Virus record (IMG/VR): IMGVR_UViG_3300011335_000775
Coordinates: 32,001-96,000 of that record
From: a virus
Strand: one strand, 5' to 3'
Length of the DNA: 64,000 nucleotides
In this document: piece after piece, positions 26,467 to 32,144 of the stretch
How the letters are laid out: each line of letters opens with the position of its first letter
How positions within the stretch are numbered: position 1 is the stretch's first letter
Translations under genes and position numbers: made by a program
Notes under the pieces: generated by a model
Told to the model about the DNA's origin: nothing
Databases searched by the model: none
Seen by the model: the letters and a program-made list of their open reading frames with translations, nothing else

Positions 26467-27594
26467 GCAGATATAGAACCGTGACCGCAGAAGTTGAAGT
26501 TGAACTATCGGACTTTGACACCGATGACCTTATCGAAGAGTTAGAGAGTCGTGGCGCAGACTATAACACCAATGGTGTGAATGCTGATGAGATGCGACTG
26601 TTGCTGGAGTCAATTTGGCACAAGCGTCGACTGGGCAATAACGACTACCAAGCAGAACTGGACCGGTTGATATACGGTGTGCTTGGGCATGTAGTGTGAT
26701 CAATCTAAACTTCAGCATTGCTAATCCTTGGCGCCGAGATCTTTGGAACATCCTGTGGAACATCAGCAGGTCGATTACCAAACACAAAGCCGTGGAGTTC
26801 AATGGATATCGCACTGGGCATATGATTGATATAGAATTTGAGTGGAGATTCAATGGCGATCATGCAGGCGCCAGAGTCATGCTGGTGATGCTGGGATATG
26901 GTGTGGAACTGCATTTCTACGATATGCGGCATTGGGATTATGATAGAAACACCTGGGACAAAGTTCTATGAACGCATTGATTGAACGCATGATCAGTGAA
27001 GCCGGACTCAAATACTCTCCTGAACAAGCAGAAGCAGTGGAACGACTGGTGCGGATAACAGCTACTTTCTGTATTGATCAATGCGGCGGCAAAGGTGTAT
27101 GTGTAGGATCCACCCTGGTCAAGAACAAGATTCTCACAGCATTTGAAATGAATCGACCCCCGGAAAGAACTTTATAGTGAGTCGAGATCTATGGACAGAA
27201 ATGGTACAGGAACTGTCACCAAGAATTGACAAAAATGCAGCAGAACTTCTATATCACCGTGCCGCAGCAGCCCGGGGGCATGGTCAAAAACTCGAAGTGC
27301 CCAACGGTATGGGCAAGTGGGTAGACTTGACAAAATTGTTTGAACAGTATACAATGATACAGATTTTAAAAGGAAAAAATGATGGCAACAGCAAAAACAG
27401 TAAACAAACTCAGTGACAAACTGGTCAAAGTGAATGAGAACTTCACCATCAACATGTACGACAATGGCTTCATGGTTGAAGTAGGTGGACGCAACAAAAA
27501 GAGCGATTATGTCAGTGCCAAAATCATATGCAGTACCGTGGATGAGGTGTTAAGTCTTGTACGTGAAGCATGTGAAATGGATCGAGATAGCTAA
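26463..27594 (+). CDS. Run of five short coupled hypothetical genes (26463-26699, 26696-26971, 26968-27177, 27177-27416, 27382-27594)
   Basis: Overlapping stop/start junctions. Confidence 0.6.
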
Positions 27595-28862
27595 TGCAGG
27601 TAATGTGCAATTGCGGCAGAACACTAAACCCCGAAGGCTGGTGTGATGCCAGCCACTCACTGAGTGAAGATCAATATGTTGCGATGTTGGAACGCCAACG
27701 GCAAAAGCAGATAAGATCAAAAATTAGTATTGCTGACAAATCTAATCAGATGGTCGAGTTTGATAACCGGGCTAATTTTAGTACCACAAATTCAAATAGT
27801 GTTGGAATTTATATAAATTACAGTGTTAATCATTTAATAGAAAATCAACTTTCTACAGATTGTGTAATATATCAAGATAATTTTGATATTTTTTTAAAAT
27901 CTAAGCATAGTCAATACATTGCAATTTTGACTATGTTTGGGGGGCATGATGGATGGGCAGATCAAATTGAACCGTTGATTGCTCTCTGCGATCATGTGTT
28001 TATAATCTGTACAGAAGTTGTACCTCCTGTTGTTGATTTTATTCAACAACATGATCATCACAACGTTACTTATTATCTTTGTGGGCATTTGAATTTTGAA
28101 TTAAAGCATAGTGTTGTACATCAATATATGTATTGGTTTAATATCACTACAGATTTTTATCGTAACTGGCTTCCTGAACTGTTGCATAGGCTACATCCAT
28201 TTGACACAAAAGAATCAAATTTTGATATCTTGTTAGGGTCTCAAAAATCACATCGAGACTTTGTATTTGAGCAAGCAACAAAAACCCCTGGATCATACGT
28301 TCTAACATATTTTAAAAATTTATTAAATTGGGACGTGTTACAGCAACCTGAATGGGAACAGCAAGGTGTTAAGATGCATCACATTCCAGGATGGACTGTG
28401 GAGACCGTTGAATACTACGGATATATGCTTAGTTTAAGTCAAATTATTCCATTTAAAATTTATAATCAAACTGCGTACTCTGTGATTACAGAATCTGTTG
28501 CACAAAATCAATTTTCATTTTGTACTGAAAAAATAGTCAAACCGATAATTGCACGTAGATTGTTTGTGATATTTGCTGGAAAGGGATATCTAGCCAATTT
28601 AAAAAAACTAGGATTTCAAACATTTGATAGCATTATTGACGAAAGTTATGATAACATAGATAACGACATTGAGAGATGGCAACATGCATGGAATCAAATT
28701 GAATGGTTAAATTGCCAATCACAAGAACTTATATTAAAAAAAATACTCTCAATTGTGGAACATAATTTTTCAATTATGATGAATACAGATTGGCCTGGAT
28801 TATTTAGACAACAATTAACACAAGAATTTGTTAATGTAATAGACTTCCAAGAACAAAATTAA
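27594..28862 (+). CDS. CDGSH-like Fe-S finger fused to GT10-like paralog 3
   Basis: CNCGRTLNPEGWCDASH; SVITES...CTEKIVKPI...GFQTFDSIIDESYD. Confidence 0.55.
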   Translation: MQVMCNCGRTLNPEGWCDASHSLSEDQYVAMLERQRQKQIRSKISIADKSNQMVEFDNRANFSTTNSNSVGIYINYSVNHLIENQLSTDCVIYQDNFDIFLKSKHSQYIAILTMFGGHDGWADQIEPLIALCDHVFIICTEVVPPVVDFIQQHDHHNVTYYLCGHLNFELKHSVVHQYMYWFNITTDFYRNWLPELLHRLHPFDTKESNFDILLGSQKSHRDFVFEQATKTPGSYVLTYFKNLLNWDVLQQPEWEQQGVKMHHIPGWTVETVEYYGYMLSLSQIIPFKIYNQTAYSVITESVAQNQFSFCTEKIVKPIIARRLFVIFAGKGYLANLKKLGFQTFDSIIDESYDNIDNDIERWQHAWNQIEWLNCQSQELILKKILSIVEHNFSIMMNTDWPGLFRQQLTQEFVNVIDFQEQN

Positions 28863-28864
28863 AC

Positions 28865-28893
28865 TTGACAACATCCAGGATTATTGTTATAAT
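28865..28893 (+). promoter_or_regulatory. Perfect sigma70 promoter
   Basis: TTGACA-17-TATAAT. Confidence 0.9.
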
Positions 28894-28899
28894 TACTTG

Positions 28900-29163
28900 G
28901 CATGGGCAAGGAGGTGGAGCAGCTCAATGGTGTCAGCAGGGTGGATCAATTCCCCGGGCCTGCTAACGCCGTGGCATGTGAGCATAAGTCTTATAGGTTG
29001 CGACCAAGACCTCGATTGAAAAATCAAAACCAGGCTGGTACCCTGGGAGTATGCCAAGAGGAATAATCTGGAAAGGATATGAGAATGTCTGTTGAAATTG
29101 GGATCTCTGCGTCGAGCATGTCCGAGTCACTCAATTTGCTTAAAACAACGCCCTTGCCCATGC
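28900..29163 (+). ncRNA. Candidate structured RNA of unknown class
   Basis: 12-bp terminal stem starting at the predicted +1, multiple nested stems, GNRA loops. Confidence 0.6.
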
Positions 29164-29411
29164 ACCGTATTTGGGTAGAGCTCGATGGCACTGAAAAGTG
29201 GTACAAGATCATTGCCGAAGCCAATCGTGAATTTGGTATTCGTGGATGGCGCGGCCAATCAGGTGCCAAGCGCCGATTAGATCGCACACGTACTTGGCCA
29301 TCCTTGATCAAAACCACCCAACGTGTGTGGTTTGATGTGCCTGACGAAAAGTTTGCAACTTGGATAGCTATAAAGTATGCGGTAACGGTGCTTGCATCAC
29401 CCGGTAAATAA
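29160..29411 (+). CDS. Hypothetical protein (alternative start 29085)
   Basis: MHRIWVELDG...FATWIAIKY. Confidence 0.6.
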   Translation: MHRIWVELDGTEKWYKIIAEANREFGIRGWRGQSGAKRRLDRTRTWPSLIKTTQRVWFDVPDEKFATWIAIKYAVTVLASPGK

Positions 29412-29415
29412 TCTT

Positions 29416-30945
29416 ATGTTTCTCAGTCTTATTACTTTAGCTGTGGCCCTGGGGCTCAGCATCATTGCTGCATATTACAGCATTGCTGGGCTCACAGCCA
29501 TTTTTGCCTCAGCTGTGGTACCCATTATAATCATGGGCTCTATACTAGAGTTAGCCAAAGTTGTAGTCACATTATGGTTACACGAATACTGGGCACGATG
29601 TCGCTGGCTAATGAAGCTGTATCTAGTGCCAGCAGTGATCATGCTGATGTTGATTACCAGTATGGGTATATTTGGATTCTTGTCAAAAGCTCACAGTGAT
29701 CAAAGTTTAGTATCAGGTGATGTCACAGCAAAGATTTCCATATATGATGAAAAAATCAAGACTGAGAAGGAGAACATAGATGTTAGTCGTAAATCCCTTA
29801 AACAAATGGATGAGGCCGTGGACCAAGTTATGGGTCGTAGTTCAGACGAAAAAGGTGCAGACAAGGCTGTGGCTGTACGCCGTGGCCAACAAAAGGAGCG
29901 TCAGCGCCTGCTTGCGGAAATCTCAGAAAGTCAAAAACGTATCACAGCACTTAATGAACAACGTGCTCCTATTGCTGCCGAAGTTCGCAAAGTTGAAGCA
30001 GAAGTAGGACCAATCAAATATATTGCTGCACTGATCTACGGCGATAATCCCGACGTTAATATCCTGGAACGTGCTGTACGTTGGGTGATCATCCTGCTGG
30101 TATGTGTGTTTGACCCCTTGGCCATAATGATGTTGTTGGCTTCCACTGAAAGTTTAAAGTGGGCTAGAACACCACCAAAGAAAGAAGTCCAGGAAGAAAT
30201 TCCTGAAGATGGATACAAAACACCTTGGTCAGAGTCAGTTACTGAATCAGAAGAAAAGGACTTTGACGTAAATGATCATCCATACTTGTTTACAGCACCG
30301 GGCGGTACTAGTCCACCGGGCATAGACCCTGCCCCAATACAGGTATACAACGAGCCCGGCGAAGAAACATTGGAGCCTTGCTATAAGTGTGGCACACCAT
30401 TAATTAATGCGCCTGGTATTGGACCGTTTTGCCCAAACAAAGAATGTGATGTTGTTGATAGTTGGGCTTTACAAGATAATGAACCAGTCAAGATAACATA
30501 TATCTCACCAACTGCACATCTTGATGACGAACGTTATGATGATGACAGTCCCGAGATGAAACAGGCCAAAGCACAATGGAAAGCTGACAACCCAGGCGAC
30601 ACTCTCAAACGACATCGTTACCTGCTTGAAACAGGATCAATCGATCAGTTGCCATGGATGCAATATCTAAACAAATTGCCCGAATCGGGATTTGGTCCTG
30701 TGCTGCCCGAGTACGGTTCCAAGGGTGATACATTTATATCCACTATAGGGATCCCACATCGGCTATATAAACATAATGGTACCGAGTGGATCAACATTGA
30801 CAATACTCAACAACACAGCTATACTTACGATACAGCCTACATTGATCATTTGATCAGTCAAATTGAAAAAGGTCTATACGACCCCGACATGCTGAATGAT
30901 AGCGAACGTGACCAGATTGAACAACGAATAACACAAAATAAATGA
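29416..30945 (+). CDS. Multi-TM membrane protein with coiled coil
   Basis: N-terminal TM helices, heptad region, CYKC..CPNKEC. Confidence 0.7.
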
Positions 30946-32144
30946 CCAAAGAAACATATACCTCTTGCAGCTTTTGTGGCAAGAACAAAGACTCAGTTAA
31001 AAAACTCATAGTTGGTGAATACGCAGGTATTTGTAACGAATGTGTGGAATTTTGTCGAGATCTACTTACAGATGAACCAGTTGTAACTGTCCCTGACCAT
31101 CCATCAGACAAGATGGATCCTATTGCTTTAAAGAACTATTTGGATCAATACGTGATTGGGCAACATGCTGCCAAAATCATGTTGGCCGTGGCCATTGTAA
31201 ATCATTACAAACGCATCAGCAAAACCACAGCGGAGCCCGAACTAGACAAGGCCAATATCTTGATGTTAGGACCCACTGGGTCAGGTAAAACATTGTTGGC
31301 CAAATCAGTGGCACGTTATCTTGACGTTCCGTTTGCCATTGCAGATGCAACATCAATCACAGAAGCAGGCTATGTGGGTGATGATGTGGAAAGCCTTATC
31401 AGCAGACTATACGCAGCATCGGGTAATGATGTGGCCAAAACACAGCAAGGTATTGTGTTTGTGGATGAAATTGACAAGATCTCTCGCAAAGGAGAATCAA
31501 CTTCGATCACACGTGACGTATCCGGTGAAGGTGTACAGCAGGCCTTGTTAAAGATGGTCGAAGGTACAGTATGTCGTGTGAGTGCCGGCGGCGGACGTAA
31601 ACATCCAGGCGGTGAAATGATTGAAATTGATACCAAGAATATCTTGTTCATTGCCGGTGGCGCCTTTGTGGGACTAGACAGTATTGTAAAGAACCGTGTG
31701 CAAGGCACCAGCATTGGATTCAATGCCAGGGTAGAAGCCAACATGGACACAGATCTGGGCATGACCACTCCGGATGATCTAGTAAAGTTTGGAATGATTC
31801 CTGAGTTTGTGGGACGTTTTCCTAACTGGGTCAGCTTGAAAGAACTTTCAAAAGCAGACTTGATCCGTATCCTTACCGAAGTCAAGAACAACTACATTGA
31901 GCAGTATCATTGGCTGTTTAAAGAAGATGGAGTGGAGTTGACATTTACAGCGCCTGCACTGGATCTTATTGCTGAACACACACTGGCCAACAAAACTGGT
32001 GCTCGTGGGCTGCATTCAGAACTGGAACGCACATTGATTCCGCACATGTTTAATCTACGTCGCTATGCCAGCACAGGTATCAAATGTTTGGAAATCGATC
32101 CTGCACAAGTAAACAAACCAACTGCACTAACAGGTACAGACTGA
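30942..32144 (+). CDS. clpX: ClpX AAA+ unfoldase
   Basis: C4 Zn finger, [34 protein letters not shown] loop. Confidence 0.95.

Follow-up and report, generated by a model that had tools for sequence, protein, structure and literature searches.

Results

A structured RNA lies at the head of a phage operon

The DNA analyzed here, referred to as the window, is a 64-kb stretch corresponding to positions 32001-96000 of a 113.8-kb IMG/VR virus record, the completeness of which is estimated at 33% by CheckV. Related contigs extend up to 348 and 364 kb, indicating that the source is a giant phage. The region of interest contains a promoter, a structured RNA and a run of genes, all in the same orientation:

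28865-28893, plus strand: sigma70-type promoter, with -35 TTGACA at 28865-28870 and -10 TATAAT at 28888-28893 (12/12 consensus)
28900-29163, plus strand: structured RNA domain of 264 nt, scoring 285.9 bits with covariance model R1; its position 1 is the predicted +1
29085-29411, plus strand: small ORF of 108 aa, with 81 homologues in the protein collection
29392 (or 29417) to 30945, plus strand: membrane/coiled-coil protein of 517 aa, with a weak likeness to DUF4407 (E 0.0014, below the Pfam cut-off)
30942-32144, plus strand: ClpX, assigned by Pfam

Inspection of the promoter bears out the consensus TTGACA-17-TATAAT element of the original prediction: the match is 12/12, the 17-nt spacer ends in TGT and thereby places a TG before the -10 (an extended -10), and no other 12/12 match occurs in the 7 kb scanned. 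Alignments of homologous loci show that the conserved block runs from the promoter through 29163, and that the distance between promoter and RNA is fixed in nearly all of them, although the genes upstream differ from locus to locus. The seventh nucleotide after the -10, G28900, is the predicted +1 and also the first base of the helix that closes the RNA (P1). Judging from this constant spacing, transcription would start at 28900, and we infer from its sequence that the 28865-28893 element is an active promoter.

The upstream gene, a 422-aa ORF at 27594-28862, is AT-rich, with a GC content of 0.24-0.39 as against about 0.45-0.51 in its surroundings, and has no family match in Pfam or PHROGs. 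The ORF is not conserved at this position, with the 348-kb contig that carries locus L090 retaining only its first 37 residues, and it resembles a cargo gene that is inserted or variable. At loci L154, L157, L159, L165 and L171, a terminator-like GC-rich hairpin with a T-run lies ~50 nt upstream of the RNA, and an extended -10 (TGCTAAAAT or similar) that has no clear -35 comes right after it. The presence of a terminator and an extended -10 just upstream in several distant loci suggests that the RNA unit is transcribed on its own; in these phages, it would be insulated from upstream transcription.

Downstream, the start of the 517-aa gene overlaps or abuts the stop codon of the small ORF, an arrangement that suggests translational coupling. 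In the product of this gene, the N-terminal part carries membrane helices and the C-terminal part is Cys-rich; a coiled-coil stretch is also present. The order of small ORF and DUF4407-like membrane protein is kept in 30/30 matching loci, those lacking the RNA included, and ClpX is third in the operon wherever the flank reaches far enough. This gene context (small protein, membrane protein, ClpX) indicates no ligand or binding protein.

The promoter and RNA are conserved together in giant freshwater phages

Homologous loci were gathered by searching IMG/VR with the single 108-aa ORF protein (21 loci), IMG/VR with a protein profile (42 loci), lake metagenomes (80 loci) and IMG/VR with a profile of distant proteins (80 loci). 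Promoter and RNA are conserved together in more than 150 viral and metagenome contigs. Full-length matches to R1, a model of 273 positions and 63 pairs (RNA numbering takes 28900 as 1), were found in 79/80 of the metagenome loci and 70/80 of the distant viral loci, leaving 10/80 of the latter with no R1 match. In both sets, the RNA lies in every case directly 5' of the small ORF and overlaps it, and the co-occurrence of RNA and protein extends to about 31-35% protein identity. There is one copy of the RNA in the 113.8-kb record, and exactly one in a complete 364-kb genome.

BLASTN against 50,697 GenBank phage records gave no match, and a protein-profile search of 185,579 prokaryote genomes found the protein encoded in none of them; a literature search likewise found no paper describing the RNA motif. 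The RNA is confined to uncultured giant freshwater phages, which provide well over 100 natural variants.

Covariation defines a compact, probably pseudoknotted fold

The minimum free energy of the 264-nt stretch is -92 kcal/mol (z = -2.99 versus dinucleotide shuffles), a value that 0/200 shuffles equaled, in agreement with the earlier proposal that this region forms a structured RNA. RNAalifold, applied to 16 sequences, revealed compensatory changes in the closing helix, the 5' hairpin, a long-range helix between leader and ORF, and an intra-ORF hairpin. In a MAFFT alignment of 53 sequences, standard pairs are present in 91.8% of cells, compared to 32-43% when partners are slid by 1-3 columns; 42/67 pairs have changes on both sides, and the covariation score is 0.362 versus 0.07-0.11 for the slid controls. 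When 86 copies are aligned to R1, standard pairs are present in 92.6% of cells (slid controls, 31-41%), 55/63 modeled pairs show double (compensatory) changes, and the covariation score is 0.537 versus at most 0.10; this second alignment is fitted to R1 and is hence biased towards the structure, a bias from which the MAFFT alignment is free. Covariation among homologues, the check proposed along with the original prediction, is thus abundant in either alignment.

The many G-U pairs show that the structure belongs to the plus strand. Across the 86 divergent copies, 50/264 positions are at least 93% identical and the helices are 91-99% paired; those of the at least 93%-identical positions that are unpaired cluster in junction strands (AGG.UG, AA, G.GUA.GC and CUU..A..AACG.C). 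In total, the fold comprises 13 helices, a probable pseudoknot, GNRA loops and conserved junction strands, and when all column pairs were scanned for a conserved alternative conformation, P8, P9 and the pseudoknot came up but no second set of consistent helices. Its elements are:

28900-28911/29152-29163, plus strand: P1, 12-bp closing helix; 10/12 pairs with compensatory changes in 86 sequences
28917-28992, plus strand: 5' domain, one long irregular hairpin made up of P2a, P2b, P3 and a variable apical loop (28941-58)
28917-19/28990-92, plus strand: P2a, part of the 5' hairpin
28922-25/28980-83, plus strand: P2b, with double changes in every pair
28927-40/28959-72, plus strand: P3, with double changes in every pair of its inner part
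28973-28976, plus strand: 5' strand of the probable pseudoknot, GGCA, in an internal loop of the 5' hairpin; partner, UGCC at 29052-29055
29052-29055, plus strand: 3' strand of the probable pseudoknot, UGCC, inside the conserved G.GUA.GC segment
29000-29003/29136-29139, plus strand: P5, stacked on P8, its 3' strand inside the ORF; 99.7% paired
29004-29009/29067-29071, plus strand: P8, its 3' strand (UCUGG) immediately 5' of the AAAGGA Shine-Dalgarno (SD) region
29014-17/29022-25, plus strand: P5a, with a GAAA loop
29030-34/29042-46, plus strand: P5b; 5/5 pairs covary
29075-29090, plus strand: P9, hairpin GGAUAU-GAGA-AUGUCU, in which the SD (GGA) pairs with AUG 29085 and codon 2
29091-29135, plus strand: P6, 45-nt hairpin formed by ORF codons 3-17; 91-98% paired, double changes in 12/15 pairs
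29136-29163, plus strand: P5 3' strand (29136-39), joining strand and P1 3' strand (29152-63); codons 18-27

Comparison of these elements with the pairings first proposed from the window sequence shows that several are retained. The segment GCATGGGCAAGG (28900-28911) is indeed the exact reverse complement of 29152-29163, and P1 covaries from GGGC/GCCC to GACC/GGUC, and to GCAUAGUGUCGG/CCGACGCUAUGC in L062. The 14-bp stem at 28927-28940/28959-28972 is present and covarying among homologues, with 92-99% of cells pairing in P2b and inner P3; the same is true of the GATT-GAAA-AATC and CCAGG/CCTGG hairpins. P5a occurs as GAUU-GAAA-AAUC, GAUC-GAAA-GAUC and GACCUG-GCAA-CAGGUC, and the A-rich linker that connects it to P5b (CAAAAC, 29025-29030) has a central AA that is at least 93% conserved. 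The proposed GGCAT/ATGCC pairing is real as GGC(A)/(U)GCC, but not as a nested closing stem: because its 5' strand sits within the covarying 5' hairpin, it forms a pseudoknot instead. Three pairs of the pseudoknot are 95-100% paired and one covaries (A5: G-C 38, A-U 9, G-U 6), the remaining pairs being nearly invariant; since only one pair varies, we refer to this interaction as probable.

Other proposed pairings did not survive the comparison. The GTCTT/AAGAC hairpin is paired in only 58% of cells among 53 homologues, and its halves pair elsewhere (CUU with GAG 28917-28919, AGA with UCU 29067-29069). The AAATTGGG/CTCAATTT helix, which is 68% paired and has two pairs at 4% and 23%, represents a window-specific register, and the GTTG/CAAC helix shows no compensation among homologues. 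Two candidates that arose during modeling were also discarded, namely a helix first drawn as P7 (29057-59/29067-69), the 3' strand of which pairs better and covaries more with 29004-29009 (P8), and a pairing of GGAGGU (28910-15) with the CUCU loop of P6, which produces A-C mismatches in many sequences.

The helices around the ribosome binding site vary extensively in sequence. P5 is found as GCGA/UCGC, GAGA/UCUC, GUGA/UCAC and GUGG/CCGC; P8, with its end 3 nt upstream of the SD, as CCA-AGA/UCUGG, CACUG(U)/(A)CAGUG and CACC../..GGUG, reaching up to 8 bp in a distant clade. P9 changes from GGAU/GUCU to GGUU/GACU in a large group, where Ser2 becomes Thr2 and the pair is kept; it reads GGAU/AUCC in L216, which has no AUG there, and GCAU/AUGU, GCAG/CUGU or GUAU/AUAU in the distant clade. 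In the thermodynamic ensemble of the window's group, the AUG is paired, with an unpaired probability of 0.02. Within the CUCUGCG segment of P6, C.CU is at least 93% conserved, third codon position included, and the strand that joins the 3' strands of P5 and P1 follows the consensus CUU..A..AACG.C (29139-29152).

The RNA matches no catalogued family

Searching the 64-kb window with the 4227 models of Rfam 15, which include riboswitches, RNase P, 6S, SRP and tmRNA, gave no match at the gathering threshold, in line with the earlier failure to assign the element to a known RNA; the models for group I/II introns, GOLLD, ROOL, raiA, OLE, HEARO, manA and wcaG were among those unmatched. At E<=10, the 28700-29500 region yields three chance-level matches (20.6, 15.6 and 15.4 bits versus thresholds of 43-80); the element itself contains just one of these, a minus-strand match to a miRNA model. 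At the 3' end of the small ORF, 29386-29419 weakly resembles the NLPC-P60 RNA model over its first 21 positions (15.6 bits, E 7.4), including a run of 16 identical nt; chance is the most probable cause. ARAGORN found no tRNA or tmRNA in the whole window. Likenesses to RNase P, 6S, SRP, Y-RNA and group I introns were considered and proved to have no model match behind them; a group I intron is further disfavored, beyond the lack of an Intron_gpI match in Rfam, by the absence of a 5' exon, given that conservation sets in at the promoter and that different loci have different genes upstream. We conclude that the RNA is a genuine conserved structured RNA outside all catalogued families.

Signals of other kinds were considered and set aside. 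An upstream small ORF from ATG 28927 is not conserved (8 aa in the L035 group). An apparently conserved upstream ORF in the distant clade has CUG or AUA in place of AUG in many members and a stop codon that varies, and corresponds to the 3' strand of P9. A candidate intrinsic terminator after P1 is a U-rich run in the distant clade that encodes Phe/Trp codons of the protein's first strand. No terminator and no conserved 3'-end signal were found 3' of P1.

The last part of the fold is read as codons

In the window's clade, translation appears to start at ATG 29085, as indicated by an AAGGA SD 7 nt upstream, by a frame 0 that is open in 53/53 sequences (stops occur in the +1 frame in 44/53 and in the +2 frame in 53/53) and by indels in multiples of three, the two found downstream of this ATG being -3 and +3 nt, with indels of 1, 2 and 4 nt just upstream. 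ATG 29160, which the original prediction had noted in the closing stem, is internal in this phage (Met26). The idea of a start codon sequestered by the RNA holds instead for ATG 29085, which lies with its SD in the small covarying hairpin P9.

Examination of codon positions shows entropies of 0.48/0.47/0.51 for codons 2-26 and 0.85/0.68/1.26 for codons 27-108. The flat profile of codons 2-26, which have no third-position excess, indicates a constraint at the RNA level and runs counter to conservation from ATG 29085 at the protein level only, an explanation raised at the outset. Residues 23-25 vary (PLP, PQP, PSP, PLV, DA) where the closing helix needs them to, and pairing is kept. AlphaFold2 gives a pLDDT <50 for residues 1-22 and predicts a compact alpha/beta domain for residues 26-108. 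Residues 1-25 are encoded by the RNA fold and residues 26-108 (from ATG 29160) make up the conserved protein core, so that the protein owes its first 25 residues mainly to the RNA.

The 108-aa ORF has no Pfam or PHROGs match, and viral hypothetical proteins are its only matches in the ESM Atlas. For the protein core, Foldseek found no match at E<=0.001, and the likenesses seen are to generic ferredoxin-like folds only (VIA Z <=6.9); these fold matches are too weak for the small protein to be called RNA-binding.

The start codon moves within a conserved fold, and some lineages have lost the RNA

In a distant clade (L146-L166), matches over the full R1 model score 30-68 bits and the same fold spans 290-310 nt. 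P9 often has no AUG here; the first codon of the ORF corresponds to Met12 and falls within the A/U-rich loop at the tip of P6. The N-terminal stretch contains a stop or frameshift, with the fold nonetheless kept. The upstream AUG of L216 does not head an open frame; in this locus, the ORF begins at the Met26 counterpart, within the P1 3' strand. The start codon is thus found at three places in one conserved fold: P9, the P6 apical loop and the P1 3' strand.

P1 of the distant clade also carries a conserved symmetric internal loop, UGAA/GGAA (tandem G-A type), where the window has plain Watson-Crick pairs. This loop could be a site of protein or tertiary contacts.

Several lineages have lost the RNA and still possess both protein and operon. 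In L167/L214, L177, L178/L179 and L186, a consensus promoter is followed by 5-6 nt, an ATG or GTG, 3-5 codons and the conserved LHR (this promoter/start arrangement, of leaderless type, lies at around position 1480-1510 in L167, L177, L178 and L186). From their sequences, these mRNAs look leaderless. The 315.8-kb, 91%-complete record that holds L167 has no copy of the RNA anywhere, and RNA-less loci retain recognizable remnants of the P1 3' strand or the J5/1 joining strand. In L142, a close relative of the window, a deletion has removed the promoter, all but a little of the RNA and the greater part of the upstream 422-aa gene (window 27594-28862), whose homologue there is left with its first ~43 codons, joined in frame to ...SESVSMHRVYMEI of the small ORF. 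The affected segment, L142:1339-1734 (metagenome contig Ga0209597_1006831), constitutes a natural deletion variant.

Discussion

A candidate translational gate

Taken as a whole, the comparative evidence favors, with a probability that we would put at roughly one half, a reading in which the RNA is a cis-acting translational gate for the operon of small protein, membrane protein and ClpX. That the RNA is present in single copy and always with the ORF, begins at the predicted +1, encloses the start site and is dispensable where the mRNA seems leaderless argues for a cis-acting element. P9, P6, P5 and P1 all use the ribosome binding site or the first 26 codons, which makes folding and translation mutually exclusive, and a gate on translation would be the simplest reading of this exclusion. 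Of the two possibilities put forward originally, a large cis-regulatory leader is thus the better one, and an independent ncRNA is weakened by the finding that the RNA never occurs away from the ORF and by the 91%-complete related genome that lacks it.

In such a gate, the first transcribed base would also be the first base of P1, and the 5' end of an early phage mRNA would fold into a compact, pseudoknotted domain of ~264 nt. The ribosome binding site of the first gene (AAGGA, AUG 29085) would be held in a four-helix junction, inside P9, with codons 3-27 supplying P6 and the 3' strands of P5 and P1. To initiate, the 30S subunit would have to melt P9 and the base of P6, after which the first ribosome would unzip P6, P5 and P1. 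The fold would in this manner gate translation of the small protein and probably also that of the coupled membrane-protein gene, and its base-paired 5' end should protect the mRNA as well. Conservation of the junction core suggests a binding partner, its conserved unpaired nucleotides clustering in junction strands as they do in ligand- or protein-binding RNAs; a factor may tune the gate by stabilizing or loosening this core, candidates being a metabolite, an ion, a host or phage protein, or possibly the encoded protein itself.

Several points weigh against a gate. The column-pair scan brought up no conserved alternative ("on") conformation, and the gene context names no ligand or binding protein. 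The position of the start codon in the fold is not fixed across clades, and an aptamer that gates a ribosome binding site is expected to keep its geometry, which leaves room for a different reason behind conservation of the fold. With 4-6 bp, P9 may also be too short to form more than a weak barrier.

Relation to known RNAs

The element has the characteristics of a riboswitch on two counts: an aptamer-like fold with covarying helices and conserved junction nucleotides, and a 5' leader with the SD and AUG inside or beside that fold (P8, P9). Translational riboswitches in which the ribosome binding site is part of an aptamer helix or pseudoknot include SAM-II/SAM-V and preQ1-II, and in the btuB cobalamin leader the control region extends into the coding sequence. 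The phage RNA resembles them in its location at an mRNA 5' end, in having helices that covary around highly conserved junction strands, in its probable pseudoknot and in the pairing of SD and start codon inside a conserved fold. It differs from the riboswitches of Rfam in showing no sequence or model similarity and in being much larger (about 264 nt, 13 helices), and from translational riboswitches in that about 80 nt of the fold are coding, the start-codon position is not conserved and no ligand is suggested.

Autogenous operators that wrap an initiation region, such as the E. coli alpha-operon (S4) mRNA pseudoknot and the T4 gene 32 leader pseudoknot, likewise place the ribosome binding site of an operon's first gene within a pseudoknotted fold. 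By analogy with such operators, some of which are from phage, the first gene product here, a small basic protein, could be the effector; however, the S4 and gene 32 operators span 40-110 nt, and the fold of the phage protein carries no specific RNA-binding signal.

The large orphan RNAs raiA, ROOL, GOLLD, OLE and HEARO share with the phage element a length of >200 nt, many covarying helices and an unknown function; they too were found largely through comparative metagenome analysis, and GOLLD and ROOL occur in phages. Unlike these free-standing genes, the phage RNA overlaps a start codon and 14-26 codons, and it has no Rfam match.

Alternative explanations

The migration of the start codon among three places in an otherwise constant fold is one observation that speaks for an RNA with its own function, a bifunctional molecule (stable ncRNA, scaffold of an RNP with the encoded ferredoxin-like protein, or ribozyme) whose 3' quarter is overlapped by the ORF; untranslated copies would fold and act, and translated copies would yield the protein. 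We consider this explanation rather unlikely. The replacement of the P9 "AUG" by CUG or AUA with compensation in the distant clade, which makes P9 structural first, is in its favor, as are a size and complexity within the range of large orphan RNAs and ribozymes and the persistence of RNA and protein together down to about 31-35% protein identity. Large, elaborately folded, covarying RNAs are rare, and most of those that have been solved proved to be riboswitches, ribozymes or RNP cores. An RNA acting for itself, however, fits poorly with an element that is never apart from the ORF or present in a second copy, that has no terminator or conserved 3'-end signal after P1 and that was lost in several lineages retaining protein and operon, and whose protein has a generic ferredoxin-like core (Z <=6.9) with no specific RNA-binding match. 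That the RNA is functional in its own right in a wider sense, as a new class of large riboswitch that senses a signal during infection, or as a ribozyme or RNP scaffold acting together with the small protein that it helps to encode, with its last quarter coding and its start codon mobile, is a tentative possibility. Were the RNA to act for itself, giant lake phages would carry a new class of large RNA, of raiA/ROOL complexity, with a built-in reading frame.

The pairing of the predicted +1 within P1, which leaves no single-stranded 5' tail, and the embedding of the ribosome binding site would suit a constitutive element that responds to no signal, stabilizing the early mRNA against 5'-end-dependent decay and setting a fixed low level of translation; the RNA-less relatives, for their part, use another unusual start, the leaderless one. 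A simple 5' hairpin would suffice for this purpose, leaving 13 conserved helices, a pseudoknot and near-invariant junction nucleotides across deep divergence without an explanation, and we regard such a role as improbable.

A thermometer of the rpoH kind, the melting of which would release translation of a proteostasis operon (ClpX), is very hard to credit. Like the rpoH (sigma-32) thermosensor, a structure of >200 nt comprising the initiation region and internal coding sequence, the phage fold reaches about 80 nt into its ORF and precedes stress/proteostasis functions. Thermometers rely on marginal helices and show little sequence conservation; the phage RNA is strongly conserved in sequence, with tertiary-type features, near-invariant junction nucleotides and stable, mostly perfect helices with GNRA caps. 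The hosts, moreover, are presumably lake bacteria that experience narrow temperature swings. Both the signal-independent stabilizer and the thermosensor are weaker explanations because neither needs this architecture.

Finally, although all close relatives have an open frame from ATG 29085, the notion that there is no functional RNA, only a conserved protein N-terminus or a known RNA family, can be dismissed, given the covariation counts, the 185 nt of the element that precede the ATG, the flat codon-position entropy of codons 2-26, the amino acid changes that keep pairs, the predicted disorder of residues 1-22, the retention of the fold in a distant clade with a stop or frameshift, and the negative Rfam and ARAGORN searches.

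Returning to the favored reading of a translational gate, the RNA would control, and in any event encloses, the start of an operon leading into a phage ClpX. Its coding part is a double-duty sequence: 25 codons evolve as RNA yet keep an open frame, and the fold stays fixed as the start codon shifts about within it. The element is open to direct study: the consensus promoter should work in E. coli, at about 264 nt, the domain is within reach of probing and cryo-EM, and the leaderless relatives and the deletion variant amount to natural "knock-outs" that are ready comparators.
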